A stretch of DNA of 62,991 bases, filler included, from Licmophora abbreviata (GCA_900291995.1; 17 parts of 17 records of this genome joined end to end with filler, not necessarily neighbours in it); one strand, 5' to 3'. Shown: positions 1 to 17,834, counted from the first letter of the whole stretch. The notes: generated from the letters alone by a model not told the origin. Numbers and translations are program-made.

Positions 1-1027
1 GTTCGGGCAGGACATACGTTTCCGGCAGACCCATCAGCAGCGCGGCTTCGCGCGTGGATAGAAGGCGCGACCGCACCTTGTTGCCATCGACCACCATGAT
101 CGTCTGGCGGCTCGAGCCGCCAGCGGGCGTGCGCAGGCATCCCGCGATCTGATCGAACCGCACCTCTGCACGTTGCCGCTTCACGCCATCCACGTCAGCG
201 CGTGTGCGCCTGTAGATCGTTCCGACAACGCGCTCCTCGCACTCCTTTGCCGCTTCGACCTTCTTGCGATTGTGATCGGTCATAAGGTCGAGCAGGTATT
301 TCGTCTCGGCCTTCGTATGCCATTTCACACCCGTCGGGTTGTCCTCGATCAGAGATGCGAGGTTCGTGTTGCGTGCGGGTGGTGTGGGCAGATTCCACCA
401 GCGCCATCGTGACGCAGCGGCCTGCGACAGCAGGTTGCAACCCTCGATGAGCGCGGGCGGGTGCCACATAGCGCTTGGTCCATCCGCAACGTGCGCATCC
501 GGTATCACCTGATCAGGGCGCACGCCGATCATGAAGAAGCGTGGGCGCGATTGGGGTAGAAAGTGTACCGCATCGACGACTACCGCGCCAAACCGATACC
601 CGAGGCCAGAAAACGCAGCGGCGAGCGTCGCGAAGTCTCGGCCGCCGTTGCTTGTGATCGCGCCATAGACGTTCTCAAGCGCTATGATCTTGGGGCCGCG
701 CCCGTCCTTGTGCAGTGCGCGCATCAGCTTCCAGAACGGTTTGAACATGCCCGAACGCTTGCCCGCTAGGCCCGCCCCGTTGCCAGCGAGTGAAAGATCC
801 TGACAAGGGAAGGACGCCCAAACCAAATCAGGTGAACCGGGCAAATCTTCTAATGTGACCTTAGCGACATCCCTCAAAAGCAATTCTTCGCCGCCGTCGT
901 GGTTGACCCGATAGCTGGTAGCTTTCTTGGCGTCTATGTCGTTTGCGAAAAGGCAGCGCCAGCCGGAGCCAAGACCATATCCAGCCATGCCGCCGCCAGC
1001 AAAAAAATCGTAGTAAGTGTGACGCAT
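1..1027 (-). CDS. DNA (cytosine-5)-methyltransferase, 3' end runs off the window
   Basis: Manual translation from ATG 1027: MRHTYYDFFAGGG (motif I), WASFPCQDLS (motif IV, catalytic PC), ALENV (motif VI), PQSRPRFF (motif VIII), RLLSTREAALLMGLP (motif IX). Absent from the ORF track because there is no stop inside the window. Confidence 0.95.
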   Translation of the reverse strand, partial: MRHTYYDFFAGGGMAGYGLGSGWRCLFANDIDAKKATSYRVNHDGGEELLLRDVAKVTLEDLPGSPDLVWASFPCQDLSLAGNGAGLAGKRSGMFKPFWKLMRALHKDGRGPKIIALENVYGAITSNGGRDFATLAAAFSGLGYRFGAVVVDAVHFLPQSRPRFFMIGVRPDQVIPDAHVADGPSAMWHPPALIEGCNLLSQAAASRWRWWNLPTPPARNTNLASLIEDNPTGVKWHTKAETKYLLDLMTDHNRKKVEAAKECEERVVGTIYRRTRADVDGVKRQRAEVRFDQIAGCLRTPAGGSSRQTIMVVDGNKVRSRLLSTREAALLMGLPETYVLPE

Positions 1028-1223
1028 GGTAACCTCAGCCCAACATCTTGTGCTTTTGTAGCATGACCGTAGAACGGTTAACAACGTATTTGCCTAGTCG
1101 ATCAAAGGCGCGAAAGGCCACCAACATTCCGCGGTCTGGGACACTTGAATGACCCGCTACTGTTAAACTAGGCTCGTAGCGACTGCCATTCTCGTCGGCT
1201 GGCTCCGACGACCGAAATTCTAT

Positions 1224-2075
1224 GTGAAAGATGAAATGTCCCGCGAAGAGTCTTTGCCCTGCAGGCACAGAGGTGCACCGCCTGAAGAAATTGTTCAGCT
1301 GGTGGTCGACCTAATCCAGGGCATCTCGAATGATGAAGATTACCTATACCGTAGGGGGCTGACCAAGACTGACTATGAACTGGCATTGCCGACGGCGGTA
1401 GAAAGACTTAGGGGCAGCACGGCTGCGAAATCAGCAGACCGACGGAATTATCTTTTGGCCATAATTAGGCATCTAGAAAGAACAGGTTTAATAAGTTCAT
1501 TTGAAAAACCTGAATATGGTAAAGATACAGTTTATCGCCTGGATACCAGAGAGGCCGGCAAAATAGCCATTATTCAGAAAGGGTGCCCGGACGGAGCTCA
1601 CAGTAGTACTGCTTGGGCAGTACCGGAATGGGCCAATGAAACATATCTTTGGTGGGTATGTCCGAGCTTAAGGTCAGAGCCGGGTGAGCACGTGGCGAAA
1701 GGTGTAAATCGTCTAAAGAAGAAGTTCTTTTCAGAAGATTCAAAAACACTTAGTGGATTGATCTTTCAGAGCGAACTTTGCGGCACCGACCTGCGCCCGT
1801 GTCCAAAATCAAGCCACTCCATAAGTATTGATGGCTCTCTTGTGCCGCCACCGTGCATTTGGGTTTTGCCAGATAGATCTCCTGAAGGCGTACACAATTG
1901 GGAAGGCGCGATCGAGCGGCAGTTTCCAAGATTACTTCTTAGAGCATTTGGTATCGACGATGAGCGCAGTAATGTGTTCGTGGGGCATATAGGTTTCGTG
2001 GAAAAAGGAGCAAAGAGCCGGTTTAAGATTGTTTCTCGTTATGGAGAAGCACGAACAACCAGCTATCGCGGATAA
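1224..2075 (+). CDS. Hypothetical protein, possible divergent restriction-endonuclease-like partner of the MTase
   Basis: 283-aa ORF divergent from the MTase; AIIQKGCPDG segment and Cys-rich LCGTDLRPCPK..PPPC; first gene of a tightly packed operon. Function is inferred. Confidence 0.55.
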   Translation: MKDEMSREESLPCRHRGAPPEEIVQLVVDLIQGISNDEDYLYRRGLTKTDYELALPTAVERLRGSTAAKSADRRNYLLAIIRHLERTGLISSFEKPEYGKDTVYRLDTREAGKIAIIQKGCPDGAHSSTAWAVPEWANETYLWWVCPSLRSEPGEHVAKGVNRLKKKFFSEDSKTLSGLIFQSELCGTDLRPCPKSSHSISIDGSLVPPPCIWVLPDRSPEGVHNWEGAIERQFPRLLLRAFGIDDERSNVFVGHIGFVEKGAKSRFKIVSRYGEARTTSYRG

Positions 2076-2076
2076 C

Positions 2077-3396
2077 ATGAACAATCCAGTTATCGATCAG
2101 GACCGCTATCAACACCTAAATGCAAAGGTCAGCGCAAGCACGCGGAAGGCTCTCCTTCCAGCGTGGTCGCGGCCTGAAAAAGAGTTGCCGTTGGTCGACT
2201 TAGAAGTTGGTTGGGTGAGGTTTTCGACGCTCAATCACAGAACGAAGGCCGAGCAGATGCGTATGGCGTCGAAGCAAGGTGTCCTTGACTTATTCTCCAG
2301 CGATCCGCTCGGCGATCACGCACAAGAACTACAATACGACATTCTTAGGGGCCAACATGGGTTCGAAGACCTGAAGGCGGATCTCCGAGAGCGGGGACAG
2401 CAGGAGCCCGCGATCGTCACCTGCGAGGGTGTTCTGATTAATGGAAACCGCAGATCTGCTGCCTTGCGCACACTGTACCTAGAGGAACAACATTCTCCCT
2501 CGCGATATGTGCGATGCTTGGTCTTGCCGCATGATGCCACGACTGACGAGATCGTTGATCTCGAAACCGAGTTGCAAATCGCAAGGGATTTTCGAGAAGA
2601 GTACTCTTGGGTAAACGAAGCGCTCTTGATCGAAGAGATTTTTAACCGCGAGGACCAAAACTGGGAGCGCGTAGCGTCACGAATGCATATGGAGGTCCCC
2701 GCAGTTAGGATACAGTTCGAGAAATTGCAGCAACTTCATCAGCTAGTCGCACTTTCAGGGGGAGCAAAATTCCATGCTGACTTTTCTGAGAACCAGTCAG
2801 CCTTTGAGGAGCTAGCGAAACACATAAGGGGTAAACCTGCGGCAGAAGCAAATTCCGTACGGGAAGCCTACTTCTTGGGAACCCTAGCCGGCGTCGAATA
2901 CAGGACACTACGTCATTTGCGTCGAGACGATGCGGCAACACTTATTCGAAAAGAACTTGAGCATGATCCAAGCATAGCCGCGCTTATTTCAGATTTCCAA
3001 GTTGAACAAAAGGAAAGTGATGGCGACCTTCTGGATGATGTCTTGGGTGAACCGGACGAGGTCAATGGGAACCTTTCCGGAATTCTTTCCTTTTTCGCCA
3101 CGAAGGGGCGAGACGACGTAGTCGATCTTCCAACCGGAAGATCTGTCGCAGTTGATGATCTAATGGGATCAGTCAATGCAGCAGTCAATGCGGCGGCGCA
3201 GGAAGCAAACGAGGAAGACCGCGACAATAAGAACCTGAATGCGCCCATAAATCGAATCTCTTCGGCCATAGAAAACCTTCGGCGAGCTGGCGCAGCACTA
3301 GAGAAAGCGCGTGCTATACCTGATTGGAACGAGAATGAATTCGAGAAAAAAATTGAGGAACTTGAAGCTGAGGTCGCAAGTTTGAAGTCCCTCTAA
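2077..3396 (+). CDS. ParB/Srx N-terminal domain protein with long helical, acidic C-terminus
   Basis: LKADLRERGQQEPAIVTCEGVLINGNRRSAAL fits the ParB/Srx GxxRxxA nucleotide-binding motif. ATG 2077 lies just after the upstream stop (2075). Confidence 0.8.
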   Translation: MNNPVIDQDRYQHLNAKVSASTRKALLPAWSRPEKELPLVDLEVGWVRFSTLNHRTKAEQMRMASKQGVLDLFSSDPLGDHAQELQYDILRGQHGFEDLKADLRERGQQEPAIVTCEGVLINGNRRSAALRTLYLEEQHSPSRYVRCLVLPHDATTDEIVDLETELQIARDFREEYSWVNEALLIEEIFNREDQNWERVASRMHMEVPAVRIQFEKLQQLHQLVALSGGAKFHADFSENQSAFEELAKHIRGKPAAEANSVREAYFLGTLAGVEYRTLRHLRRDDAATLIRKELEHDPSIAALISDFQVEQKESDGDLLDDVLGEPDEVNGNLSGILSFFATKGRDDVVDLPTGRSVAVDDLMGSVNAAVNAAAQEANEEDRDNKNLNAPINRISSAIENLRRAGAALEKARAIPDWNENEFEKKIEELEAEVASLKSL

Positions 3397-5336
3397 TGAT
3401 TACGCTTGAAATCTACCAGCAAGATCGTCCCAGGGTCGTTATTGAAAGAGGTGCCGACACAAACCCGGGCGCATGGGCGAGGTTGCAGGAAGCGCTTGCC
3501 AGGGGTGTTCTCTCGGGTTCCGACAAACGCTCTGTTGTTCACCCTGATGTGCTGTTTTCCGAACTAAACACGCTCAGAGAAGTTCGAAGCACATTTGCGG
3601 AAAAGATTCAGTTTGGGCCCAACCTCCAAGCACAGCTGAAATCAATAGCTGCCGATCGGAAGTCATTGAGTGATTTTCTTGAGGACTCCGAAAAAGGTGA
3701 TTCAGAGATGGTCGATTTAACGGCCGAGTTGAGTGCTGCTGGATTCAAGAGGACACTCAAAGAATTCCAGATGGAGAACTTATCTCAGATTCTTACTTTG
3801 CCTCACGCGGCGGACTTCTCTGTACCGGGTGCAGGGAAGACTACAGTCGCGCTGGCCGCGTATTCGCTGCTTCGGGCGCGTGGCGAGGTCGAGCAGCTCC
3901 TTGTGATTGCGCCGCTTGCAGCGTTCGGTGCATGGCAGGACGACTCCGTTGAGTGCTTTTCCGTCGCGCCGAAGATTGTAACTTATGGCGGAGCAAATAC
4001 AGCCATTCCGAGCGATACAGAGATCTTGCTGGTGAACTATAATAGAGTGGCTAGCGACTATGATNNNNNNNNNNNNNNNNNNNNNNNNNNNNNNNNNNNN
4101 NNNNNNNNTTAATTAATTAANNNNNNNNNNNNNNNNNNNNNNNNNNNNNNNNNNNNNNNNNNNNCGCATCGAATCAAACGTGGTGGGTCAGGCGTCTACG
4201 GTCGTGCGGTTCTAGACTTGGCATATCTTGCGAGAAGGCGTGATGTTTTGACAGGTACGCCTGCACCGCAAGGTGCGTCAGACGTCGTTGCGCTGGTTCA
4301 GTTTATGTATCCAGGGCAGGATAGAAGAATTCTGCCAGATTCGACCTACAATGAGCGAGAAGGCCGGGATCCAAGCGTTCTGGCGGAAACTCAGTCTGCA
4401 CTAGCTCGATTTTTTGTCCGAACCGCCAAGAGCCGTCTTGAGCTTCCACCAACGTCGTTCAATGTTGTCCAACGTCCTATGGGCCAGATCCAATCAGCCG
4501 TATACGACGCGTTGGTTGGACGCTACCGTTCTGCATTCATGTTGGACCGGAGCGGGCGTCACAACATGCAGCGGCTTGGCCGGATTGTCATGTATCTCTT
4601 GGAGGCTGCCACGAATCCGATGCTGCTCACAGCAGGATCCGACGAGGCAGACGATCCGAGCTTTGTCCACCCACCGTTAGACGTAAGTGGGGACGAACCG
4701 CTGCAGGAACTCCTTCAGGAATACAGCTCCTTTGAAACACCTTGGAAGTATGAAGAAGTTCAGAAGATCGTCTCACGTGAGGCAGCATCTGGTCAGAAAG
4801 TTCTGATCTGGTCGAGCTTTGTAAGGAACCTGAAATACCTGAAGATACTGCTTTCCGAGTTCAATCCGGCCATGGTGCACGGAGGCGTTCCGTCCGCTGC
4901 AGGCGCTGGTTTGGGCGTTCTTACAAGAGAGGAAGAATTCAACAGGTTTCGCCATGACAGCGATTGCTGTGTTCTGTTGGCAAATCCTGCTGCTTGTGGC
5001 GAGGGTGTAAGCCTTCACCATTGGTGTCATCACGCGGTCTATTTGGACCGCAGTTTCAACGCCGGTCATTTCTTGCAGAGCCAAGACCGCATCCATCGCT
5101 TGGGGCTCAACGAGGGCACACAGACATCGTTTACCCTTTTGATCAGTGAGGGGACAATCGATGAGTCCGTGGATGCTAGGCTTAGGGAAAAAGTAGAGGC
5201 GCTGGCCACCTTGATGAACGATCCAGGTCTGGTTTCCGTCGCACTTCCTGCAGCCGACGTTGGAGAAGATGGGCAGCCGGCCTTTGAAGACGATTTGTCT
5301 GCAATCGTCTCACATCTAGAAACACAGAATGACTAG
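3396..5336 (+). CDS. SNF2-family (SF2) helicase/translocase, split by an assembly gap
   Basis: Walker A SVPGAGKT, motif Ia LVIAPL; HRIKR right after the gap (DExH falls at the gap); motif III LTGTP; C-terminal ACGEGVSL and QSQDRIHRLG. TAATG overlap with the upstream gene. Confidence 0.9.
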
Positions 5337-6216
5337 CGTTCCTAGCAAAGGATTTTGTCATGCGGTGTTCCTCCTATTGCATGCAGCAAGGCTCAATGAG
5401 CTGAACAATACTGCAGATTGGATACAAGCTGCTCGAACCCGGCAAACAATTATGGCTTCCGCGCTCAATTTGGATGTCGTTGCCCAAAATCTGATCGAAG
5501 TTGCGCTTGTCAGCTCTAGGCCGCAGATTGAATTTTCTGAGGATTGGACCCAGGTCGGAACCAAAGCCGACTACGATGTATTTCTTCAAATCGCCACAAT
5601 TATACTTATGCGCCGCCCGCCATTATGGATTTCATCTTGTTTCGTACGAGGCGCTTTTCATCCAGAGTTTATCCCTACGGGTGATTTCGATGCCCTGCAT
5701 TGGATGGGAGATGACTTGGAGCCTGTCCTAAGAGAAGTTCATTACCAAAATCGCAAGGACAAAGATGACTTGATGAAAAAGGAGCTCGGGCTTCTTGGAG
5801 AACTCTTTGTTGTGGAACTACTTTCGAAAACTGGGCACGCGGTTAGACATGTCTCTCAAATTTCCGACAGCTATGGATACGACATTGAAAGCGAGAAGTC
5901 AGGGAAGAAAAAGTATTGGGAGGTGAAATCTTGCACCGATTTCACAAAAGATCGATTTTTCGTATCGCGAAATGAAGTCCGAAAGGCGAAAGCGCTTGGC
6001 CCATCTTGGTGTGTACTTCAGGTAGTATTTCGCAACGGAATAAGCCCTTTGGCAAAGGCGTCCGGGTCTGATGTAGTGGAGCTTCGTGAGCTACCTTCCA
6101 ATGAATTAGTGAGTATTTGTCCAAGCGAATCAGAACAATTTGACTGGATAGAGTCAGCGGTTGTTCGACCTGCATTGAGCTCTTGGGTGGCACCATCTGT
6201 TTCCCCGAAGTTCTGA
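5329..6216 (+). CDS. DUF3883 (NOV C-terminal, PD-(D/E)xK) nuclease domain protein
   Basis: GLLGELFV...HVSQISDSYGYDI...WEVKS...FFVSRNE is the DUF3883 pattern; start overlaps the helicase end by 8 bp. Confidence 0.85.
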   Translation: MTSVPSKGFCHAVFLLLHAARLNELNNTADWIQAARTRQTIMASALNLDVVAQNLIEVALVSSRPQIEFSEDWTQVGTKADYDVFLQIATIILMRRPPLWISSCFVRGAFHPEFIPTGDFDALHWMGDDLEPVLREVHYQNRKDKDDLMKKELGLLGELFVVELLSKTGHAVRHVSQISDSYGYDIESEKSGKKKYWEVKSCTDFTKDRFFVSRNEVRKAKALGPSWCVLQVVFRNGISPLAKASGSDVVELRELPSNELVSICPSESEQFDWIESAVVRPALSSWVAPSVSPKF

Positions 6217-6547
6217 AAGCAGTTGATCACTCAAAAAGAGAAAAATAGTCCCGACCGGGATCACCTCTTCATTGCATCGCGATCCAGAATTACTCGTGAA
6301 GCCGGGAATCGGCTGGAACGCCGACCCAGCGCCATTTGAGCTTTGCTTTGGATCTTGAAGTATTCTCGAAAAAACCCGTGTCCCCGCTGCTCCTGCGCGT
6401 AATGTATTGACTTGAAACATGCTTTTCTCTTGACCAGATCATGATTGATGATCTCGGGTGGAAACTATGTCATCATTGTTGACGTTTTTGCCGGAGGACG
6501 GAGAGACGCGAGGGGTGTGGGTCGCCTTTCCCCTGCTTCCGCAAACA

Positions 6548-6810
6548 TTCCCGGGATTGCCCGGGATTGAAACCGAATCCCGGTCTTCTAACCCATTGAG
6601 CGAACGCCCAATTCCGGGATTGACCTGCTTGACGGGATTGAATGTTACTTTTCCCTGCTGTCCCGGTCTGCATCAGACCACGCCTCTCGCCTCTGATCGC
6701 CACGATCTGCCCCGTCAATCCCGGCAAGCCCGGAATTGCATTGCCAATCAAGCGCATAGAAAACCCCGCCACGGACAGTGGCAGGGCAAAACCCGGGAAC
6801 ATCCCGGGAA
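6548..6810. repeat. Iteron-like CCGGGATTG direct and inverted repeat cluster, putative element origin
   Basis: (C)CGGGATTG at 6551, 6561, 6614 and 6633; inverted CAATCCCGG at 6716; CCCGGGAA at 6792 and 6803; directly downstream of the replication gene. Confidence 0.65.
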
Positions 6811-6811
6811 A

Positions 6812-7339
6812 TCAGAACGGGATGTCTTCTTTCTCGACCTTGCCGCGTTCGAGAACGTACCGCTCAAGCGCGTCTGCATTGCCGCCATTCGGATCGACCT
6901 CGACATGCTCGGCCGTGTCAGGTTCATAGGCTACCCACGCATCCGGCCCGTCATATGCCTGCCCCGTGATACTCGACACCATCGCCCGCAACTCGGGCAA
7001 AGGCGGCATCCGCAACCCGTCATAGTCCGTGCGCTTCGTGATGACCGGCGTGATGACGCCATTGCTATCCGCCCGCATGTCCACGCGCTTGATCTTCACG
7101 CAGCCCGTGGCAGAGGTCGCACCGAAGCGATGCCGCAGGTCGTTGGCGAGTGACTGAGGCGATGACCACTTGCCGCCGCGCTCTTTGACCCGCTCGAACA
7201 TCGCGCCCGAGGCAACACGGCCATCCCCGCGCAGGTCGTCGGGGCAGGCACCCGTCGTGACCATGTGGATCAGCACCTGCAACAGCGGGTCGGACGATAC
7301 CTTGTCCTCCGCCTTCGCCTCCGTGAAGTGCGGGAATCC
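6812..7339 (-). CDS. C-terminal part of the element primase/helicase replication protein (after gap)
   Basis: Open frame from the gap to stop 6812, same strand as and downstream of the primase; ends KEDIPF. Continuity across the gap is inferred. Confidence 0.55.
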   Translation of the reverse strand, partial: GFPHFTEAKAEDKVSSDPLLQVLIHMVTTGACPDDLRGDGRVASGAMFERVKERGGKWSSPQSLANDLRHRFGATSATGCVKIKRVDMRADSNGVITPVITKRTDYDGLRMPPLPELRAMVSSITGQAYDGPDAWVAYEPDTAEHVEVDPNGGNADALERYVLERGKVEKEDIPF

Positions 7340-7439
7340 NNNNNNNNNNNNNNNNNNNNNNNNNNNNNNNNNNNNNNNNNNNNTTAATTAATTAANNNNN
7401 NNNNNNNNNNNNNNNNNNNNNNNNNNNNNNNNNNNNNNN

Positions 7440-8471
7440 TTCGACTTTGCCCTCGACGTTCATCAGCGCCCATTCGTCGTTGAACGCGTCGAGGTCGTTG
7501 TCGGACACCTTCTTTTTCTTCCCCGGCCACGGCCCGCGATACCCGTGCCGCGTCGCGATGCGCCAGAACGATAGTGGCGAATATTTCTTCGGCTTGAACC
7601 CGTCCCACTGGTCTTCATCACCTGGCCGGAACTTGTCCGATGTCTTGGTCCATTCGACCCAGCGGTCGCGCGCCCAGCGGTCATCCTTGCCGAATGCGGC
7701 GACGAGGGCGAGGCCAGCAGCGCCCCACTTCGCATAGTCGTCCGCGGGATAATTCTTGATGAAGCAGTCGAATGCGGCGTCCTTGTCCCCGCCTTCGATG
7801 TTCTGTGGCTCGACGACGTGTTCCGCGACCGGCACGAACTCGAAGGTCAGGTCGTCGAGGGAGCATTCTTCCAGCGTCTCGACCGAACCGTTGCGGACGC
7901 GGCGCATGGGCACAGATTTGCGCCCGCACGGGATCGCCACGTTCTGATGCTCGTCGCCCTTGGGCAGCACCTCGACGCCATGCTCGATATGGGACAGCTT
8001 GCCCCGAGCATCGAGTTTCTTCTTGTTGAGCGCGCCCGAGGCGACCGGGATGAACTTCTCATGGTCGCTATCGACGGAGGCAAGAACGTCTTTGGCGAGG
8101 CCCCACAGCGATTTCTGCGTGTGCGCTTCCTCGAAGAACATCCAGATGTGGAAACCATACCCGCCGCCGGAGCGGAAGATCAGGTGCGGGATGCCGTGTC
8201 CATCTAGAGCGGTGGCGACGGCCATCGTCGGCCCGAACGCGATGCCTTCTTTGCTATGGTCGTCGAAGTCAAGGACGAGGCAATGCGACTTGCCCTCGGT
8301 CGTCAGATACATACCGCGCGCCGTTCCGCCCTTGAGGTGCGCTGCGATGTCCTCGGGAGCCAAAGCCCGCGCGACTTTGCGGTATTTGAACTTGCCATCC
8401 TTACGGTCAAGCCATCCTTCAGTGTGCGCCTCTTGGTTCCCGAGCGCGATGATCTTTTCGATGATTTCCAT
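7440..8471 (-). CDS. Archaeo-eukaryotic primase (TOTE-primase-like) with PriCT-2 domain, truncated by gap
   Basis: AHLKG..GMY...CLVLDFDDH and FRSGGGYGFHIWMFF (AEP DxD and SxxxxxH motifs); DYAKW..AGLAL...WVEWT..SDKF (PriCT-2). GGAGAG RBS before ATG 8471. Confidence 0.8.
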
Positions 8472-8620
8472 TCTTCTCTCCATAGTCGGAGAGCGACGGA
8501 TGGGCTCCTTACATTCCGGTTGGGCGCATACAGGCGGGCGACTATGATGATGTCGCAATCGCTTGTGGTAGGGCGTTGTTTCCAGTCGGAATGTCGGGGC
8601 GGCCATCAGGTCGCCCCGTT

Positions 8621-8863
8621 TTAGATTTCCGTCTTGCCCTGCACCCAAGCGTCCACGTCGGCGCGGCGATAGCGAACCCAGCGTTCCGTCGGCTGGCAGT
8701 ATCGCGGGCCACCGCCTTCCTTGCGCATCTGGTAGAGGCGTTCGGCGGAACACTTGAGATAGACCGCGCATTCCTGCGTGGTCATCAGTTCAGGCGGGTT
8801 CGCCCGAACAACGATTTCTTTGATTTCGTCGAGTTTCGACTCGAGTGACGAGAGGTCGGTCAT
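8621..8863 (-). CDS. Excisionase/AlpA-like helix-turn-helix protein
   Basis: LMTTQECAVYLKCSAERLYQMR..GGGPRY...VRYRRADVDAWV, typical HTH_17 pattern. Confidence 0.85.
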   Translation of the reverse strand: MTDLSSLESKLDEIKEIVVRANPPELMTTQECAVYLKCSAERLYQMRKEGGGPRYCQPTERWVRYRRADVDAWVQGKTEI

Positions 8864-9009
8864 GAGGCCACCAATGTTGAGTTGGTGCCAGATGACTGCG
8901 CGGCGTTCCCTCTTCGTCGGTCGGGGCGTCGCCCCAGTCGCTACCTTCCGCGCAGCCTCACGCGTCGGAGGCCAATGTTCCCGACGCGAGGAGGCGTGAT
9001 GGGTCTAAT

Positions 9010-10327
9010 TTACGTTCCAGTTGGGCGCATTTCAATCACGGAAGAAGGTGACGATTTGCACCGCGACATGATGTAGGCGGAAACCTTGTTCGCCGCATCA
9101 CGTTGCGAGTCGAGATCGGGCACGCCGTAATGGCCGAGCATGGCGATCTCCTTGCCGGTGAGGTTTTGACCGTTCAGCCAGCGTTGCAGGTGGTAGGGGA
9201 TCACGACAGACATCGCGGCCTCGTTCCACAGATGGCGAACATCGCCGGGGGCGGTCAGCGGCAGGCGGTCGAGAACGTCTAGATGGCCGCGCTTGCCTTT
9301 GATGCGGCGCACGGACGGGAACACCCAGTCGCTTGAATGCATGTCCCGCACACGCTGGAACACCGACCGCGCATAGTCGGAGATGGCGACGGTGCGTCCG
9401 TTCTCGTCGCGCTTGAGGCGGGCGAACGTGACGGTGCCATTTTCGAGATCGACCTGCGACCAAGTCAGTTCGCGCAGGACGTTCTCGCGGCAACCCATGT
9501 GCCAGCGCAATTCCCAGCAGGCGCGCTTGATCGGGTTTTCAATCGCCACGACCTCCTTCCAGCGTTCGGCCCAGTCGATGTCGNNNNNNNNNNNNNNNNN
9601 NNNNNNNNNNNNNNNNNNNNNNNNNNNTTAATTAATTAANNNNNNNNNNNNNNNNNNNNNNNNNNNNNNNNNNNNNNNNNNNNATGTCACGCTTCGGCTG
9701 CTTCGTGATGTCGGTCAGCGTGGGGATCGGCAGCACAACGGCGTGGACCTTGCAGGCATGGCGCAGCGTCGCGCCGATCACAGCATGGGCACGATAGGCG
9801 GCGTGCGGACGGTCCTTCTGCAAGGCGTTCAGGTGTTGGTTGATGTTGCGCGTCGGCAGCTTGTCGATCTGCACATCTGCCCATTTGGCGAGGTGAAGGC
9901 GAAACGTGCGGCGGTATTCGTCGGCGGTGTCTGCCTGCATCCGGCTCTTGCCCGAGAAGCGCGGGCCGGTCTGATGCGTCAGATAGGCGTCGAGCGCGTC
10001 GGCAAGGTTCGGCAGGGGCATTTCCTCCTCGACCGCCTTAACCGCCTTCTCTGCGCGGCTCATGAACTCTCCGGCGTCCATCTCCGACTTGACCTCGGAC
10101 GCGATCCGCCATGCCTCGTCTCGCTTCATGTTCGGGAATTGTCCGATCTTCACTTGCCGCGACTTCTGCGCCGCGCCGTCCCACTTCGATGCGTACCACG
10201 TCTTCGTGCCGCCCGACGTGACGGACAGGCGCAGCCCGCGATAGGTTTTGTCCGAATACCATTCCGTCTTCGACAGCGGTTTGATCCGCTGGATCGCGCT
10301 GTCGGTGAAGGTCATTGTCGTCGCCAT
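9010..10327 (-). CDS. Tyrosine recombinase/integrase with N-terminal arm-binding domain, split by gap
   Basis: N-terminal YSDKTYRGLRLSVTSGGTKTW..KIGQFP (DUF4102-type arm domain); catalytic region GCRENVLRELTWSQVDL, WVFPS, GDVRH, GHY; adjacent to the att site. Confidence 0.9.
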
Positions 10328-10464
10328 GCGTCGCTCCTGTTTTCGAGAAAATTCGAGAACACGTTACGATCCACTTGGGCAGACGCCAACCGAAGATCAA
10401 AGTAAGTAACTGATTTTGTTATGAGTTTTGACGGACATCATATCCAGTTGGATGAGGCCGAGCG

Positions 10465-10511
10465 CATTCGTAATGATGGGGTCGGGGGTTCGAGTCCCTT
10501 CAGCGGCACCA
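10465..10511 (+). other. att site: 3' half of tRNA-Thr(CGT), not a complete tRNA
   Basis: CATTCGTAATG anticodon arm, GGGGGTTCGAGTCCCTT T arm, CAGCGGCACCA acceptor end; the complementary 5' GCCGCTG and D arm are missing. Confidence 0.85.
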
Positions 10512-10606
10512 CTGTCTCATCCAATGACATCCAAAACACCTTGGTTTATAGGGGTTTTTGCGATGTCATATTGTCATATGACGTTCGGCCCGCTTCGGTA
10601 GGATGC

Positions 10607-10820
10607 CCCTATCCGATGGGTCCGCGTCAAATCCTTTACGCCTTCGAAATCGCGGCTAAGATGACGCTGCAGCTGGTGGCCGTCTGTGCCGCGGCAGGGG
10701 TGATCGTGGGTGTCATCGCCCTGACCGGGATCAGAACGCGGTTCTCGTCGATGCTGCTTGGACTTGCTGACCAGAATCAGGCGATTGCCCTGTTTTTTGC
10801 AATGATAGTGTCGATTATTC

Positions 10821-10853
<33 letters not shown>

Positions 10854-11371
10854 CGACGACCGCGGCCTATGCCGTCGCGGCCAGTGTGATCGGACCGGGT
10901 CTGGTGCAGCTTGGCGTCCCGCCACTGACCGCGCATTTCTTCATTTTCTACTACGCGGTCATGTCCGCGATCACGCCGCCGGTTGCCCTTGCCGCCTATG
11001 CCGGTGCCGCGATCGCACAGTCAGACCCGACGAAGACCAGCGTGGAAAGTTTCCGTATCGGGCTTGCCGCCTTCGTGGTGCCTTTCATGTTCTTCTCGTC
11101 GCCTGCGCTTCTAATGGACGGAAGCTGGTTCGAAGTGATCCATGTCGTCATATCTGCCTTGTTGGGGATTTATCTGCTGTCTTCGGCGGTGCAGGGCTGG
11201 TTCTTCGGCCTGCTCTCGATGCCCTTGCGCGGGTTCCTTCTGGCTGCCGCCTTGTCGATGATCGCACAAGGCTGGTTTACCGATGTGATAGGTCTTGGCG
11301 TGGCACTCGGCATCTGGCTTTTGCAGAAGAAGCTGGTCGATCCCAACAAGGTCATCCGTGGCGCTGACTGA
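10607..11371 (+). pseudogene. 5'-truncated TRAP transporter fused permease (4TM/12TM type)
   Basis: LGMGMPTTAAY, AHFFIFYYAVMSAITPPVALAAYAGA, AAFVVPFMF motifs; only the last ~250 aa are present; the ORF-track N-terminus is just att/tRNA sequence. Confidence 0.8.
10823..10852 (+). repeat. (GGCATG)5 microsatellite in the TRAP remnant
   Basis: Five exact copies encoding (GM)5; this family usually has GMGMP. Confidence 0.9.
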
Positions 11372-11741
11372 TCTTGAGATTTAAACCGACGCCCGCTCCT
11401 CGATCCGTTCGCAGGGGCCGGCGGGCGTTTTTCCGTCTGGCGCGCTTGTCGCCAAGAGCTGCAATTCCATCCGCTGGCGGGCAGCACTTCAATTCGGAGA
11501 CAACCGTCGCACGTCTAAGCCTGCGGCGGATTATACACCAGAGCAGCCTGACCCGCTCAATGCATGGTGCGACTGCCGGGGGTATTCAGGCGAGATCGCG
11601 AAATAATACAATTGATATCCGACGTGCCAATTTAAAACACCGAATCCCTTGAGCACACGACGTCTCCTCAGCCGTTTCTCCACCCCGTGACCCCAACGAT
11701 GCTCATTCGCCGCCGCCCTCTTTTCGTGCGAAGTTTAATCG

Positions 11742-11757
11742 TTAAACCCACGGTAAC
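11742..11757 (+). promoter_or_regulatory. CtrA-like box upstream of motB
   Basis: TTAA-ACCCACG-GTAAC versus consensus TTAA-N7-TTAAC; similar boxes at 12752-12766, 14372-14386 and 15111-15126. Confidence 0.55.
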
Positions 11758-11805
11758 ACCTTCTCCGCTATCCCTGTCCTCGGGTGAGTTGAAAAGGTGG
11801 TGAAG

Positions 11806-12679
11806 ATGGCAGCGTCTGGCGATAACGCCGCGCCGGTCATCATCAAACGGAAGAAAGTCATTTCTGGCGACGGGCATCACGGTGGTGCCTGGAAGGTCGC
11901 TTACGCCGATTTCGTGACGGCGATGATGGCATTTTTCCTGTTGATGTGGCTGTTGAACGCGACGACGGAAAAGCAAAGAAAAGGCATCGCGGACTATTTC
12001 AGTCCGACAGTGCCCATCAACCGCATCTCAGGGGGCGGTGACGGGAATTTTGGCGGCGAAAGCGTGTTCTCCGAAATGACCCTGCCTCAGAACGGTAATG
12101 GCGCCACCAATCAGCGCCCAGCAGACTCCAGTCAGTCGCGCGGCGAAACCGGCGTGTCCCAAGACACGGCAACCGCATCGGGATCAGGCTCTAACGTCGC
12201 CCGGCAAATGGCCAATGATGCGAAGTTCGACAAGGTGCAGGATCTTCTCAAGGGTCAGTCTGGCGAAAGTGCGGTGTCGCCTGAAATCATGCGGCACATA
12301 CTGACCCGGGTGACCGACGAAGGCCTCGTGATCGAGCTCTTCGATCTCAAAGATGCGAGACTGTTTATGCCCGAAAGCCATGCACCCACCCCTCTCTTAC
12401 TGCAATTGGCGCAGCTGGTGGTGACGNNNNNNNNNNNNNNNNNNNNNNNNNNNNNNNNNNNNNNNNNNNNTTAATTAATTAANNNNNNNNNNNNNNNNNN
12501 NNNNNNNNNNNNNNNNNNNNNNNNNNGACGCCATGCGCAACCTCATGCAGGACGCCGGGATAAGGTCCGACCGCATGAGCCGCGTCACCGGCCATGCCGA
12601 CCGTGAGCCGGTTCTGTCCGACAAAATGGCTCTTCGCAACAACAGGCTGGAGGTGATCCTGCTGCGATCCGACGACTGA
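11806..12679 (+). CDS. motB: Flagellar motor protein MotB (OmpA-like C-terminus), split by gap
   Basis: HHGGAWKVAYADFVTAMMAFFLLMWL; after the gap VTGHADREP...NNRLEVILLR. Confidence 0.9.
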
Positions 12680-12823
12680 CGCTCGTAAATCGCTTCGCTT
12701 CTTGTCGACCCTCACGGGAGGCTCGAAAGGTTTTCGAGCGGATTTTATCTGTTCACCTGCCATTAAATGGATCTGCGCCATGCTGCATCGCGAAACCTCT
12801 CGATGCAGCAGAAAGGCGTATCC

Positions 12824-14088
12824 ATGACGATTTCCTCTTCCCTCAATGCCGGTGTTGCGGGGCTGGCCTCCAATGCAACGCGACTGGCCGCCATCTCCGA
12901 CAACATCTCAAACTCGGCCACCTATGGTTACAAACGTGTGGAAACCGATTTCCAGTCGCTCGTGATCTCGTCGAATGGTGGCAGCTATTCCGCGGGCGGC
13001 GTCCGCTCCATCACGCAGCGACTGATCGATGAAAGCGGATCCTTGGTCTCGACCTCGAATCCGACCGATCTTGCCGTGCGTGGGCGCGGCATGCTGCCCG
13101 TGGCGTCGATCAGTCAGATCGATGCAGGCAACGGTGAACCGCAGATGTTGCTGACGACAACCGGCTCGTTCCGCACCGACGCTCAGGGGCGTCTGATGAC
13201 CGGGACAGGCCTTGTGCTGTTGGGATGGCCTGCCGGCCCTGACGGGACCGTGCCGGAATTTCCCCGTGACACCAGCGATGGGCTGGAACCCGTCCGCATC
13301 AACGTCAATCAGCTGACGGGTGAACCGACCACCGAAATCAATCTGGGCGTCAACCTTCCCGCCACCGAGACCGAGGCGGGATCGACTGGTGACAGCCGCC
13401 AGCTTTCGGTCGAATATTTCGACAATCTCGGTAAATCCGAGAATATCCTCGTTGAATTCAGCCCCTCTGTCCCCGCCACCGGATCTTCCAACGCATGGAC
13501 TGTGACGATGCGCGATTCCGCTCAGGCGGGAGCCGTGATCGGCGAATACTCACTACAATTCGATGATGCGCGCGCCTCGGGTGGCACCCTTCAGTCGGTG
13601 ACGACCGTTTCGGGCGGCGCCTTCAACAACCCAACAGGCAGTGTGATCGTGAACGTCGCGGGCGGTCCGATGGAAATCCGCATTGGCCAACTCGGCACCT
13701 CCACGGGCATCTCGCAACTGTCCAACAGTTTTGCGCCCCTCTCGATCTCCAAGGATGGCTCACCGGTTGGCAACATGGTCTCGGTCAACGTGGATCCGAA
13801 CGGCTTTGTTCATGCCTCCTTCGATACCGGTATTACCAAGATCATCTATCAGGTGCCGCTGGTCGATTTGCCGAATCCCAATGGCATGGTCTCACTCGAC
13901 AAGCAGACCTTCATGCCTTCGCCAAATAGCGGCTCGTTTTTCCTGTGGAACGCCGGTGACGGCCCGACCGGGGATGTGGTGGCCTTCGCCCGTGAGGAAT
14001 CCGCCACCGATGTCGCGGGCGAGTTGACCGACATGATTCAAACCCAGCGCGCCTATTCGTCGAACGCCAAGGTCATTCAGACCGTCGA
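12824..14088 (+). pseudogene. flgE: Flagellar hook protein FlgE lacking its last residues, fused to antisense flagellin sequence
   Basis: SLNAGVAGL..ISDNISNSATYGYK N-terminus; EESATDVAGELTDMIQTQRAYSSNAKVIQTV, then homology stops and the frame reads on to 14386 through unrelated sequence. Confidence 0.85.
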
Positions 14089-14217
14089 ATTGTCCTTGGC
14101 CTGGCCAATTTCCTTGCCGGTCGAGATCATATTCTGGGTGTTCGCCAGGTTCTTGTTGACGGATTGCAGCGTTTGCAGCGCGACCATGGCGCTGTTGTTG
14201 GTCAAAATACTGGACAT
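14077..14217 (-). pseudogene. fliC: Flagellin 5' fragment (about 44 codons)
   Basis: MSSILTNNSAMVALQTLQSVNKNLANTQNMISTGKEIGQAKDNS is an alphaproteobacterial flagellin N-terminus; AAGGA RBS; stops two codons after the flgE junction. Confidence 0.9.
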
Positions 14218-14425
14218 AGCTTGTTCCTTTAGCCTGTGGTGCTTTGCACCAGTTGCGTCCCGCCCCCGTGGGAGACGGCTATGGCGTCTTTCTGACGTAT
14301 GCGGCTGCCGGGTCACCCCCCGAGGCCGCGCCAACCGCTTCCGGCTGCACGATCACCATCGCCGCCAATTGCTAAGGGAATGCTAAATCCGCCTTTCCAT
14401 ATGACCTGCATTTGAGACAACTTGC

Positions 14426-14785
14426 TCAGGCTCGTTTTTCGATCTTGCGCACCACCGCGCCATCGATCGTCTGTCTTTTCCCGCGTTGATCATAGGTCTC
14501 CAGTGCCTGCCGCACTTGCCGCATCGCGGCCATCCGTGCGGCGACCTTTCGGATCCCTTCCAGCGCTCCGTCCAGAAGCTCCTGATTGCGCATCAGCTTT
14601 CTGTGAACCGACTCAAGCTCTGGTCCACGTTCCAGATCGAGCGCATTGAACCTGTCGATCAGCTTTTGTTTGTCCTCGAGAATCGGACCGATCTTTTCCA
14701 GATTGCCGGACAGAAGACTGCTCCGTTCACTCTCCAGAAGATCATCCAGCCGATCAATCAGACCCTGCATGTCATTCGCCGTCAT
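14426..14785 (-). CDS. flgN: Flagellar export chaperone FlgN-like protein
   Basis: LDDLLESER..RNQELL..ETYDQRGK pattern; located between flgJ and flagellin. Confidence 0.7.
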   Translation of the reverse strand: MTANDMQGLIDRLDDLLESERSSLLSGNLEKIGPILEDKQKLIDRFNALDLERGPELESVHRKLMRNQELLDGALEGIRKVAARMAAMRQVRQALETYDQRGKRQTIDGAVVRKIEKRA

Positions 14786-15062
14786 CTTGGGCCTCCATCA
14801 TTGCGCGATAGAACGCCTGCGTCAGACCGATTCCCCCGCTTTTCACCATTTGGTCCGCGATGGCCTGCCTGTGGAAAGAGGCGAAATGATCCTCCGTCTG
14901 TTCGCCGGACAGGCTGTTTTGCTGTGCGCCCAATCCGGTCGATTTGAGCATTTCCGCCAGAAATGTTGCTTCCAGTTTCTGCGCGGCGTCCAGCGCCCTG
15001 GCTTTTTTTTCCGCGCCGGAAGGCCGGGCCATTGACGGGGGAATCGATAAAGGATCAGTCAC
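14772..15062 (-). CDS. flgJ: Rod-binding protein FlgJ (short form)
   Basis: AAQKLEATFLAEMLKS...GGIGL motif. Confidence 0.8.
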   Translation of the reverse strand: MTDPLSIPPSMARPSGAEKKARALDAAQKLEATFLAEMLKSTGLGAQQNSLSGEQTEDHFASFHRQAIADQMVKSGGIGLTQAFYRAMMEAQDDGE

Positions 15063-15174
15063 TGTTTCACCTCAAATTGACGATATTGATGATCATTTCA
15101 CCTCAATCTGGTAAAGATCCGGTAACCAGCAGATGTCATTGTGCGGGCATACTGTGGAAGAAATCCCGGAGATC

Positions 15175-16893
15175 ATGATGATTCTGCCTGATACCGCCTC
15201 CATGCTGGCGGCCGCGCCACGACCCGCCCAAGATCCTGTCAGGATCGGGCTGTCGTCCGATGCCGCGGCACATGCCAGTTTTCAGGTCGTTTTTTCGGAA
15301 TTGTCCGGTGCCATGACCGAGGATGTTCCGGTTGAAGCAGCACCGGCTGATGACATCGCCCCGCTGATTGAGGATGCGTCCACGCCGCCCGAGCCGGACA
15401 TTCCCGAAACCCCAATTCAGCCTGATTCCGGAGTGTCTCTGGCCGCCGATTCGGCGCATGACGCGCGATCGCACGGTAATCCCGTCCCCCCGCGTGATCC
15501 CGGAACAGTCCCGATTGACCCACAAGCAGAGGTCTGGCCTCGTGACGCGCACAGGCCCGTTCTTCCGGCAGATCCACAGATCCGGCCGATCGGCTCCAAT
15601 CAACCCGCCCCAACGCTCCCGGCCATGGCAGATATGTCCGGCCAACCTGCGGTGTCAGTCTCCAATCCGGCTGACGGGTCAGTTTCCAATTCACCTGCTG
15701 CGTTGGTTCCCACGCCCGCTGCCCCGTTGGCGCCCGATCCGTTGGCCTCGTTTGCCCCTGATCCGACTGCCCTGCCAGCCTCCGATCTCGCGCCCGACAC
15801 GGATGCCAAGGGCGATCCTCTCTTGCCGGATCGGGCATCGACCCAAGCTACCCTCTCGCCACCTGCCGGACCGCTTCGATCCGACCATTCCGCGCCCTTC
15901 ACGCCGGACTCGGCTCGCGTGATTGCGCCCCCTGCGCAAGGGCCCGGCCCTGATGCCGCCGCCGCCGTCTCCCTGACCTCGGCGCCCTTGACGCCCCCCC
16001 CGACGCTCAACACGACCGAGGCCCGGTTTGTTATGCCTCCGGCTCCACACGCTCCCCTGCCTGAACCGGTCGCTGCATCGCTGCCGCTCGAGGCAATCAT
16101 CGGTTCTTCCGTCGCGCGCCGACCTTCAGAGCAACCCTCGGGTTCAGGGGCGCCACCCGCGACCCTTGCGCAGCCCATACAGCCCTTCTCGCCCGTTCTG
16201 GCGCCGAAGCCCGATCCGGGCGCAATCGCGTCAAAGGAACGTCTCGCACCAAACGATCCGGTCCAAACCGCGCAGGCGCCTGTCACGCCCCAGATCGCCT
16301 TGCCGACACCTCAGCCGCTTGCCAACCAAGCTGTGCAGCCGTTCTTGGCGCAGCCTGTTCAATCGCTGCCGCAGCCGATCGTTGACGGTTGGAGCGACCC
16401 CCAGACATACGTCTCTGACCCGGCCCAAAATGCCGAAATTCGTCCCGTATCTGACCTGCCCAACGCAGCCCGCGGTTTCCATGACATCCTCCATCGCCCC
16501 GAACTGCCCCGTCAGGTTCTCACGCAACTCGTTGCCGCCATTCAGCGCGCGCCGGGCGAGAAAAATCTGGACCTCACGCTGAACCCTGCCGAACTTGGCC
16601 GCGTGCGTATCAGCCTGACGCCCGGGGATGCCGGGATCGTCGTGACCATCATCGCGGAAAGGCCGGAAACCCTCGATCTGATGCGCCGTCACGCCGAAAC
16701 GCTGGCGCAGGATTTCCTCGGGATGGGGTATGGACGGGCCGAATTCAACTTTGGTCAGACGCCGCAGCACTCCGGACAGCGGGGTGACCCCGGGACCGAC
16801 ACAAGCGACCGCCAAGCCACCGCGCCCGAGCCTCCGGCTCACAGCGTCGCATCTGTCCGCCTCTCGAACGACCGCGTCGATATCAGACTCTAA
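15175..16893 (+). CDS. fliK: Flagellar hook-length control protein FliK
   Basis: Pro/Ala-rich low-complexity body; C-terminal LNPAELGRVRISL...AERPETLDLMRRH. Confidence 0.8.
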   Translation: MMILPDTASMLAAAPRPAQDPVRIGLSSDAAAHASFQVVFSELSGAMTEDVPVEAAPADDIAPLIEDASTPPEPDIPETPIQPDSGVSLAADSAHDARSHGNPVPPRDPGTVPIDPQAEVWPRDAHRPVLPADPQIRPIGSNQPAPTLPAMADMSGQPAVSVSNPADGSVSNSPAALVPTPAAPLAPDPLASFAPDPTALPASDLAPDTDAKGDPLLPDRASTQATLSPPAGPLRSDHSAPFTPDSARVIAPPAQGPGPDAAAAVSLTSAPLTPPPTLNTTEARFVMPPAPHAPLPEPVAASLPLEAIIGSSVARRPSEQPSGSGAPPATLAQPIQPFSPVLAPKPDPGAIASKERLAPNDPVQTAQAPVTPQIALPTPQPLANQAVQPFLAQPVQSLPQPIVDGWSDPQTYVSDPAQNAEIRPVSDLPNAARGFHDILHRPELPRQVLTQLVAAIQRAPGEKNLDLTLNPAELGRVRISLTPGDAGIVVTIIAERPETLDLMRRHAETLAQDFLGMGYGRAEFNFGQTPQHSGQRGDPGTDTSDRQATAPEPPAHSVASVRLSNDRVDIRL

Positions 16894-17006
16894 AGCGTTC
16901 CGCCTTTAACCTGAGGCATCAGCCAAAGGCGGAACGCGTGCAACGATTGAACAAAGCACTGCATTTCGCGAAAATCCCTGAGTCAGGTTTTTCGCGAAAC
17001 GCTTTA
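16890..17006. repeat. MITE/REP-like palindromic element with terminal inverted repeats
   Basis: CTAAAGCGTT...AACGCTTTAG ends; internal hairpins GCGTTCCGCCTTT/AAAGGCGGAACGC and TTTCGCGAAAA/TTTTCGCGAAA. Confidence 0.75.
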
Positions 17007-17112
17007 GAAAGGNNNNNNNNNNNNNNNNNNNNNNNNNNNNNNNNNNNNNNNNNNNNTTAATTAATTAANNNNNNNNNNNNNNNNNNNNNNNNNNNNNNNN
17101 NNNNNNNNNNNN

Positions 17113-17770
17113 TGGGCATCTGGCCGCGCGCCAATTGGCGCCGCGCCTTGTGTTCCGGTGCTCCACGCCTTCGGGCATCTGCCTCGTGCATGAGGATGTG
17201 CCCGGCGCACCGCAGCGGCGCGGTACATTTCTCGTCGCTCGCGCGCTGCACAAATTGCACGCGATCGAACAACCCGCCGGTCTGCGCCAGGCCCCGGATG
17301 GCAGCGACGAACTCGCGGAACAGACTGGGGCCATTCTGTCGGACTGCGCGTCGCCCGCGGCATCGGCCGCCCGCAATCTGGCGCCTCAAGGCAAAGTGCC
17401 GCCCTTGCAGCGCCCGGTCCTTCTGCATGGCGATCCGGTGCCCGACGCCATGATCGTCACCGAAACCGGCTTTTGTTGGGCTGGCCTTGGGTGTGCCGCG
17501 TCTGGCGATCCATGCACGGACCTGGCCCTGTTCCTGTCCCCTGCCATGCAGGTTTTGCGCGGTGCCGCACCGCTTGGCCGGGCCGAACGTGCCGCCTTTC
17601 TGGCCAGCTATCCCTGCCAGCAGACCGTTGCGCGTTACCGGGCGTTGGCACCTTGGTATCACTGGCGCATGCTGGCCTATTGCCTTTGGCGGCATGAACG
17701 CGGCGATGCCTTGGCGCGCCTTGCCGTTCGCGCCGAAGAAACCGGCCTGAAACAGTCTCAAATCGCGTGA
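17113..17770 (+). CDS. Aminoglycoside phosphotransferase-family protein, 5' end in gap
   Basis: VLLHGDPVPDAMIV (APH HGD motif) and GDPCTDLA; the following motifs look degenerate. Confidence 0.6.
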
Positions 17771-17834
17771 CTCGCATCACCGCACCATCGGCGCGGCCCC
17801 CTCGGTTCGACACGAAAAAGCGAAACGCCGATCC

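Follow-up and report, generated by a model that had tools for sequence, protein, structure and literature searches.

Do a cytosine-5 DNA methyltransferase (MTase) gene and the four tightly packed genes that diverge from it form one defence system, and has such a system been described before? The question is raised by the left end (positions 1-6216) of a DNA stretch of 62,991 nucleotides from the Licmophora abbreviata assembly GCA_900291995.1, here called the window, a scaffold put together from 17 pieces (1.3-6.9 kb each) with 16 identical 100-nt fillers between them. An earlier reading of the sequence (the original prediction) had taken these genes for an undescribed anti-phage system. The most probable reading of the results presented here is a restriction-type system that moves horizontally, is guarded by the methylase and driven by nucleoside triphosphates (NTPs), and belongs to an AbiR-like superfamily. 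It is best filed as a conserved, unnamed and little-studied variant of a restriction-modification (R-M)-like kind, AbiR-like and not categorically new; the term 'undescribed' had to be given up, as the published account of AbiR gives the same logic (PMC13064643). The genes concerned, among them one for a protein resembling restriction endonucleases (REases), are as follows.

2..1027, minus strand: cytosine-5 DNA methyltransferase (MTase; PF00145), 3' end truncated by the window start
1028..1223: divergent intergenic region between the MTase gene and the operon, 196 bp
1224..2075, plus strand: REase-like protein REL, 283 amino acids (aa), first operon gene (PADLOC REase_II PDLC03501)
2077..3396, plus strand: ParB/Srx-fold protein ParBL according to its predicted structure, 439 aa, ending in a long helical hairpin
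3396..5336, plus strand: SNF2-family helicase/translocase (PF00176, PF00271), ~630 aa in relatives, with the filler 4065-4164 inside
5329..6216, plus strand: NOV_C/DUF3883 PD-(D/E)XK nuclease, 295 aa (PF13020)

Conservation of the gene set

The five genes lie where the original prediction had placed them, with the MTase gene starting from an ATG at 1027 on the minus strand and its product matching PF00145, and the divergent region that had been put at about 200 bp measures 196 bp. The tight packing was also found as claimed. The REL and ParBL genes are separated by a 1-bp gap, the ParBL and SNF2 genes overlap by 1 nt in TAATG (SNF2 start at 3396), and the SNF2 stop and NOV_C start overlap by 8 bp (ATGACTAG). 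Similar gene overlaps are present in relatives. What had been missed is the 100-nt filler at 4065-4164, which interrupts the SNF2 gene.

A pattern scan of 185,579 species genomes, one genome per species, gave 42 loci, a lower bound given that the scan demands two peptide patterns, and the genes of each of these loci were counted by tblastn with the window proteins. The hosts span at least five phyla and include Alpha-, Beta- and Gammaproteobacteria, Actinomycetota, Acidobacteriota (Vicinamibacterales) and Verrucomicrobiota. REL stands directly upstream of ParBL in 41/42 loci, SNF2 comes next after ParBL in 40 and NOV_C next after SNF2 in 39, and a C5 MTase gene is found within 10 kb in 40. All five genes are present in 38 loci, as the original prediction would have it from a gene-neighbourhood search; three of the incomplete loci (L010, L022 and L047) end at contig edges and the fourth (L050) is decayed by frameshifts near the contig start. 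There was no locus among the 42 in which the contig leaves room for a gene and the gene is missing. A four-gene, translationally coupled operon is thus inherited as a unit across phyla, and all candidate active-site residues of its four proteins are invariant (39-42 sequences per protein). The decayed locus (1279-6220 of a metagenome-assembled genome from Actinomycetota), with frameshifts in REL, ParBL and SNF2, shows that decay of the system is possible.

The gene set is also carried by plasmids of Kozakia, Azospirillum, Mesorhizobium and Rhizobium. The flanking genes, surveyed by scanning 106 of the 186 flanking open reading frames (ORFs) of at least 200 aa, vary by locus and include integrases, transposases, defence-like genes and the housekeeping genes dnaN and gyrB. 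Only one relative was found in IMG/VR, and the system is therefore not typically phage-borne. In one locus (L035, 4230-8978) a 1583-aa protein with DUF4011, superfamily 1 (SF1) helicase, MTES_1575 REase and DUF3320 parts lies between an MTase-Vsr-GIY-YIG block and the four-gene operon.

The four operon proteins

REL matched the PADLOC profile REase_II PDLC03501 with an E-value of 1.5e-17 and was without a match in Pfam or NCBIfam. Full-length REases of this profile, with 23-24% identity to REL, adjoin the MTase in L011, L016 and L033; the L016 and L033 proteins scored 399 and 355 bits, respectively, and the one in L016 overlaps the MTase gene by 4 bp. REL shares with the PDLC03501 REases the invariant positions K119-G-C-x-D123-G, E139...W143 and C193-P-K195, and K119, D123, E139 and K195 are invariant in 40/40 REL sequences. 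By these matches, REL is a homologue of a type II REase family with which this MTase clade is classically paired.

The AlphaFold2 (AF2) model of REL (mean predicted local distance difference test, pLDDT, 81) found its best structural matches in the nuclease domains of BsmI (Z 6.0) and BspD6I (Z 5.9); matches to the PD-(D/E)XK enzymes Bse634I, BsaWI and NgoMIV were also obtained, mixed with Rossmann folds. A Foldseek search with REL gave no match at E ≤0.001 and a sequence search of the PDB gave nothing useful. No sigma factor was among the listed fold matches, which barely cover the N-terminal helical residues 21-86. Sequence homology is better evidence for the identity of REL than the fold match.

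For ParBL, fold comparison was more informative than family profiles, none of which (Pfam, NCBIfam, PADLOC) was matched. The AF2 model (pLDDT 84.8), in which residues 359-438 form a long helical hairpin, had CTP-bound ParB, Noc, KorB and Spo0J as its top Foldseek matches (E-values 9e-5 to 1e-3, prob 1.0), with template modelling (TM) scores kept low by differently placed domains; the pNOB8 ParB structure (5k5d) was matched at 3.7e-3. The predicted fold of ParBL is like that of the CTP-binding ParB proteins. N122-G-N-R-R126 and E163/E165/L166/Q167 are invariant in 40/40 sequences, and little or no variation is seen in the stretch QQEP..V...G.LINGNRR.AAL and in the motif DLETELQ. Among 8000 candidates scored, 484 were relatives of ParBL at E ≤0.001, the best 120 of them being 54-82% identical. 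Their source names were 'ParB/RepB/Spo0J family partition protein' or hypothetical, and the corresponding protein atlas clusters were unnamed or 'ParB/RepB/Spo0J' only. A ParBL profile found 1,491 representatives of 50%-identity clusters at E ≤0.001, of which 895 were at ≤1e-10 and 139 at ≤1e-30.

The SNF2 protein matched PF00176 and PF00271 on its C-terminal piece, and its GAGKT motif is invariant in 42/42 sequences. Its two halves are exactly 54 nt apart in 41/41 relatives having both halves, and this segment encodes in the relatives 18 residues with the Walker B motif 'VLDEAH', which the filler hides in the window. Furthermore, public contigs (runs X1 and X2) that carry positions 1-4064 with at most one difference extend 1.3-4.3 kb beyond both ends; one of these runs may be the source of the window DNA itself. 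Because of the constant spacing and of the contigs reaching beyond 4064, the SNF2 gene is most likely intact in the organism.

The last protein of the operon matched NOV_C (PF13020, E-value 1.2e-10) and the PADLOC profiles PDC-S36, TmtA and PD-T4-1; NCBIfam gave no name for it, nor for the neighbouring REases. On the N-terminal side it has a domain of some 150 aa that is of no known kind. DUF3883 has been placed in the PD-(D/E)XK superfamily as a REase domain and described as fused to SNF2 in R-M operons (PMC3424549, PMC3710099). The NOV_C domain of HmaA is described as a Mn-dependent nickase whose D..ExK residues are essential for defence (PMC11232893). E158, D185, E198-x-K200 and Q231 are invariant in 39/39 sequences of the window family and correspond to the essential D..ExK..E residues of HmaA.

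The methyltransferase and its restriction-modification neighbours

The MTase matched PF00145 (E-value 4.7e-38) and the TIGR00675 dcm model (124 bits, cut-off 100.65), and in PADLOC DruM2/DruM PDLC00028 (457.6 bits) and MTase_II PDLC03243 (305 bits). The MTases of L018, L021, L022 and L037 share 78-81% identity with it, and the nearest relatives of ParBL are in the Mesorhizobium loci L009 and L010 (66%). The GC content is 0.47-0.52 in the four-gene block, 0.61 in the MTase gene and 0.56-0.63 further right, and so the AT-rich block of the original prediction is made up of the four genes, but not of the MTase gene. The differing nearest relatives together with the GC difference suggest that MTase and operon have been shuffled relative to each other and seem to have been recombined from different lineages. 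The placement of the MTase gene varies over the loci: upstream on the same strand in 17, downstream on the opposite strand in 11, downstream on the same strand in 8 and upstream on the opposite strand in 4. The MTases fall into two clades, ~55-80% and ~35% identical to that of the window. Pairwise-identity correlations among the five proteins were all moderate (Spearman 0.39-0.67).

The logic of the original prediction is sound, and the relatives added what it had not seen, namely that the MTase usually has a classical REase and Vsr of its own. A GIY-YIG nuclease accompanies the MTase in 20/42 loci, a DUF4928 protein (PADLOC REase_II PDLC03543) in 7/42 and a PDLC03501 REase in 4/42 (one a fragment). 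At least one classical REase, from three unrelated families, is found by the MTase in at least 30/42 loci, and Vsr is present in 20/42. In 12 loci no second REase was detected within ~4 kb, some of these being limited by contig ends or ORF calling; in the window organism, such a REase, if present, would lie beyond the left end of the window. In the favoured reading, the classical REase and Vsr that accompany the MTase in most relatives constitute an ordinary type II R-M system, with which the operon shares the methylase. Because at least 30/42 loci own such a second REase, REL is not simply 'the' REase of the MTase, but an extra copy of one REase family, which has become a constant and operon-specific part at the head of the operon. 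The recognition sequence was sought through the GIY-YIG neighbour and this route was dropped, since no solved REase could be matched to it in sequence; a PDB sequence search with this neighbour gave nothing useful.

Distant variants

Four more distant arrangements of the ParB-SNF2 core are as follows.

L055 (Paracoccus plasmid) and L058 (genome G065): N4/N6 MTase (PF01555), 154-156-aa BglII/BamHI-like protein, ParBL, SNF2 and NOV_C, all in one direction
L054 (Streptomyces plasmid): ParB-like protein, SNF2 and NOV_C, no REase-like gene directly upstream
L059 (L. plantarum plasmid, 2070-9320): divergent dcm, then ParB-like protein, phospholipase D (PLD)-SNF2 protein and MutH/Sau3AI-like fragment, then Vsr
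L060 (L. lactis plasmid pIBB109_AgSa_3, 4011-12717): type III Mod (EcoP15I C-terminal domain) and Res, then ParB-like protein, SNF2 and a 201-aa protein

The ParB-SNF2(-nuclease) core combines with different R-M modules in these variants. The ParB cores of L059 and L060 matched window ParBL with E-values of 1e-14 and 4e-8, respectively. The SNF2 protein of L059 has an N-terminal PLD/PbeA-like domain (E-value 5e-67), and the match of the 247-aa MutH/Sau3AI-like protein to a type II REase profile of 527 aa is confined to the C-terminal half of that profile. In L060, the Res and ParB-like genes overlap by 11 nt and the 201-aa protein is without a Pfam match.

Comparison with known systems

The nearest published system is AbiR, three genes that flank the LlaKR2I R-M system on the L. 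lactis plasmid pKR223 (PMC13064643). According to the same account, AbiRii is ParB-like, with pNOB8 ParB (5k5d) as the structure named for it, AbiRiii consists of an endonuclease-like N-terminal domain and a Snf2-type ATPase, and AbiRi is sigma70-like; the system lowers phage DNA replication and depends on the LlaKR2I methylase, in the absence of which it is toxic (PMC13064643). The window locus likewise has a ParB-like protein and, as two genes, a Snf2-family ATPase and a nuclease, in relatives beside a classical type II R-M system, and the model of ParBL matches ParB, Noc and KorB. The two differ, as far as AbiR is described, in that the nuclease is a separate NOV_C/DUF3883 gene of another family here and the N-terminal domain of the helicase in AbiRiii, and in that the first gene encodes the REase-like REL instead of a sigma70-like protein. 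As for methylase dependence, the window clade shows linkage only (MTase within 10 kb in 40/42 loci, classical REase in at least 30/42). PADLOC v2 gave no AbiR match for the window proteins or the variants. Among the loci compared, L059 is probably the closest look-alike of the AbiR/LlaKR2I locus.

Hma (HmaA-HmaB-HmaC), which is related to type 1 BREX, resembles the window locus in combining an SNF2 helicase, a NOV_C/DUF3883 PD-(D/E)XK nuclease and a DNA methylase, and the D..ExK residues described as essential in HmaA are invariant here (PMC11232893). However, helicase and nuclease are fused in HmaA and encoded by two genes with an 8-bp overlap here; the DUF1156 N6 methylase HmaB and the DUF499 ATPase HmaC are absent among the six window proteins searched against Pfam and PADLOC; and Hma is without a ParB-like or REase-like component. 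The PADLOC matches to HmaA were marginal (E-value 0.0013 for the window SNF2 piece, 8.9e-9 for the intact homologue of L018).

Type III and type ISP systems and the LlaI/BsuMI-type McrBC relatives share with the window locus, as described, a methylase that marks self and the use of a site reader, an NTP motor and a nuclease acting at a distance. They differ in the motor, which is SNF2 here and not Res or McrB, and in that the window locus has an obligatory extra ParB-fold protein and a reader encoded by a separate gene homologous to type II REases. In Menshen NsnA, GmrSD, SspE and DndB, a ParB-superfamily NTPase with a DNA-binding domain has been proposed as a DNA sensor that switches a nuclease (PMC12065111). 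Those proteins are of the DUF262 type with a DGxQR motif, whereas ParBL has no PF03235 match and resembles the partition-type ParB, Noc and KorB; ParBL had no PADLOC Nsn match, and the ABC/OLD-type ATPase NsnB and NsnC, as described for Menshen (PMC12065111), are absent from the block.

The other named systems were also not recovered. For DISARM, NF038317 (DrmD) scored 24.8 bits against a cut-off of 610, PADLOC gave only weak DrmD and DrmA helicase-core matches, and no DUF1998 or PLD genes were found. Druantia type II has in common with the window a DruM-type cytosine methylase (PDLC00028, 457.6 bits), but the ORFs in 1-7400 do not exceed 459 aa, and matches to DruE, DruF and DruG are lacking. 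PglZ, BrxC and ZorAB, which would mark BREX and Zorya, are absent among the six proteins, with BrxH and ZorD helicase-core matches of at most 31 bits. The original prediction was therefore right to set the locus apart from DISARM, BREX, Zorya and Menshen, each of which fails in a defining feature, as do Druantia and Hma. PADLOC v2 gives no system match; what it picks up is limited to the MTase, REL (as REase_II), generic SNF2 cores and NOV_C. A plain type II R-M system has both of its parts here, a methyltransferase (PF00145, TIGR00675) and an adjacent REase homologue (REL; PDLC03501, E-value 1.5e-17, with a weak fold match of Z 6.0). The genomic pattern argues against REL acting alone as a type II REase, since REL is coupled to the operon in 41/42 loci and at least 30/42 have another classical REase.

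A literature search found no description of the REase-like/ParB/SNF2/DUF3883 set; the supplementary system lists of PMC12839542 and PMC10853773 lay outside this search and could hold related operons. PMC3710099, the only paper found to contain both DUF3883 and ParB, was considered and rejected, as the set is not described in it. A preprint on conjugation immunity was also discarded, where ParB serves as a reporter only.

Proposed mechanism and alternative explanations

Methylation at the C5 position as the mark of self DNA, with a ParB switch, an SNF2 translocase and one or more nucleases acting on foreign DNA, remains the best reading, as in the original prediction, though its mechanism is an inferred one. 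The MTase would methylate a short site on the host DNA. REL, a duplicate from the cognate type II REase family of this MTase, would read the unmethylated site on incoming DNA, perhaps nicking or cutting it, and would recruit or license ParBL, a presumed nucleotide-gated DNA clamp or switch that probably uses CTP or another NTP. The SNF2 ATPase may then translocate along the DNA carrying the NOV_C nuclease, which would nick or degrade the DNA away from the site, so that a single recognition event could lead to processive destruction.

A bolder and distinctly more tentative version has ParBL as a CTP/NTP-gated sliding clamp that is loaded at unmethylated sites by the REase-derived reader and licenses DNA shredding by SNF2 and the nuclease, with ParB-SNF2(-nuclease) as a general 'processivity upgrade' cassette for type II C5, type II N4/N6 and type III systems. 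If so, the ParB-CTP clamp principle of chromosome segregation would enter immunity. If the broader reading of a methylase-guarded restriction-type system is true, there would be a widespread unnamed family that joins a ParB fold of the partition type, an SNF2 motor and a nuclease to ordinary R-M modules. It would provide a mechanistic frame for AbiR, which has been known since 2000 and is not understood, explain why a duplicate of a restriction enzyme is kept in the operon, and give ParB-type nucleotide switches a new job. PADLOC v2 misses such loci except for the MTase/REase pair, and consequently defence inventories undercount them.

The main alternative, which is considered unlikely and is still the strongest of those weighed, is that two independent neighbours have been brought together by clustering in defence islands, i.e., a type II R-M system made of the C5 MTase and REL beside a methylation-independent ParB-SNF2-NOV_C trio. 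The match of REL to a type II REase profile, the varying position and orientation of the MTase gene and the other defence-like genes that are often found in the flanks would all suit such an arrangement, as would the trio of L054 without a REase-like gene directly upstream and the ParB-SNF2 set of L060 beside a complete type III R-M system. However, REL is within a few bases (gap or overlap) of ParBL in 41/42 loci across phyla, and would be redundant as a plain REase in the at least 30/42 loci that own a classical one; it is because REL is tied into the operon even there that this alternative is rated low. Moreover, distant variants again have a small REase-derived protein inside the operon, and AbiR is reported to depend on its neighbouring methylase (PMC13064643).

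It is still less likely that the locus is a maintenance or addiction module, in which the ParB-like protein and the motor would serve partition or replication and the nuclease and methylase post-segregational killing. The database name 'ParB/RepB/Spo0J family partition protein', the location on an integrase/primase island here and on plasmids elsewhere, and the toxicity reported for AbiR without its methylase, which is addiction-like (PMC13064643), are in line with this. On the other hand, no ParA gene stands next to ParBL in the loci inspected, and on the Kozakia plasmid ParA and replication initiator protein A have genes of their own elsewhere. Many loci lie in chromosomes next to housekeeping genes (e.g., dnaN and gyrB in L028), the constant partners of ParBL are a nuclease and a REase-like protein, and AbiR is described as lowering phage DNA replication (PMC13064643). 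Finally, a modification-dependent (type IV-like) attack on foreign modified DNA, with the MTase belonging only to the classical R-M system next door, is very improbable: ParB/Srx (DUF262) domains are described as sensing modified DNA in GmrSD and SspE (PMC12065111) and one flank (L042) has a GmrSD_N gene, but ParBL is not a DUF262 protein (no PF03235 match), the MTase is linked in 40/42 loci, the REase-derived component matches the cognate REase family of the MTase, and the reported toxicity of AbiR without its methylase is the opposite of type IV logic (PMC13064643).

Several points weigh against the reading as a methylase-guarded, AbiR-like restriction system. That the proteins of this clade defend their host, need the methylase and form a complex is in each case inferred. 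The kinship with AbiR is a putative one, drawn by way of the Lactobacillales variants (ParB core E-values 1e-14 and 4e-8). The catalytic residues of REL are guessed from conservation only, and its fold match to REases is weak, with Z values of at most 6 and Rossmann folds among the matches. ParB did not appear at the sequence level in PDB sequence and ParBL-profile searches; the QQEP..GNRR stretch and DLETELQ may correspond to the GERRxRA and ENLQR boxes of ParB. Mere neighbourhood would also fit the variable position and orientation of the MTase gene and the two MTase clades, and the identity correlations do not clearly separate the MTase from the operon and are uninformative on co-inheritance. 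Lastly, the set is rare, with 42 loci (a lower bound) in 185,579 species genomes and a single distant variant in a phylum sample of 401 genomes.

Promoter region and genomic context

The original prediction had given the MTase gene and the operon a shared promoter region. The divergent geometry was found, but a scan of 900-6600 for the sigma-70 consensus gave 0 promoter-like sites versus 4.2 +/- 1.7 in shuffles, and a shared promoter is suggested by the geometry only. The divergent spacer holds a single CCGCGG, at 1129-1134.

Further to the right, the following features were located.

7440..8771, minus strand: archaeo-eukaryotic primase (AEP)/PriCT-2 gene of a mobile element (PF22548, E-value 1.8e-11; PF08707, E-value 8.9e-7)
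9010..10327, minus strand: tyrosine integrase split by the filler 9584-9683 (PF00589 on 9010-9549, Arm-DNA-bind_3 on 9684-10327)
4065-4164, 7340-7439, 9584-9683, 12427-12526 ... 61414-61513: fillers, 16 places

Block 1-7339 is missing from the nearest genome (G001) and is therefore accessory DNA. The primase and integrase genes are followed by the host genes DctM and MotB, which makes an integrative element plausible, with the block as its possible cargo, as originally proposed. The left end of such an element would lie beyond the window. There was no tRNA gene in window positions 1-20000. The island primase (7440-8771) matches the AEP domain PF22548 of the 'TOTE conflict system' plus PriCT-2.

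Each 100-nt filler consists of 44 N, TTAATTAATTAA and another 44 N. Contig 9 of G001 is collinear with later window pieces at 93-96% identity and carries 1007, 586 and 321 nt at the positions of three fillers, and hence the fillers stand for stretches of undefined length. The SNF2, primase and integrase genes, which cross fillers, look broken and need not be. A repeat of ~118 bp directly precedes a filler at about 16890-17007 of the window, and over 40 copies of it, 83-97% identical, are scattered over the contigs of G001; it looks like a repetitive extragenic palindromic (REP)- or miniature inverted-repeat transposable element (MITE)-like element and is a likely cause of the contig breaks.

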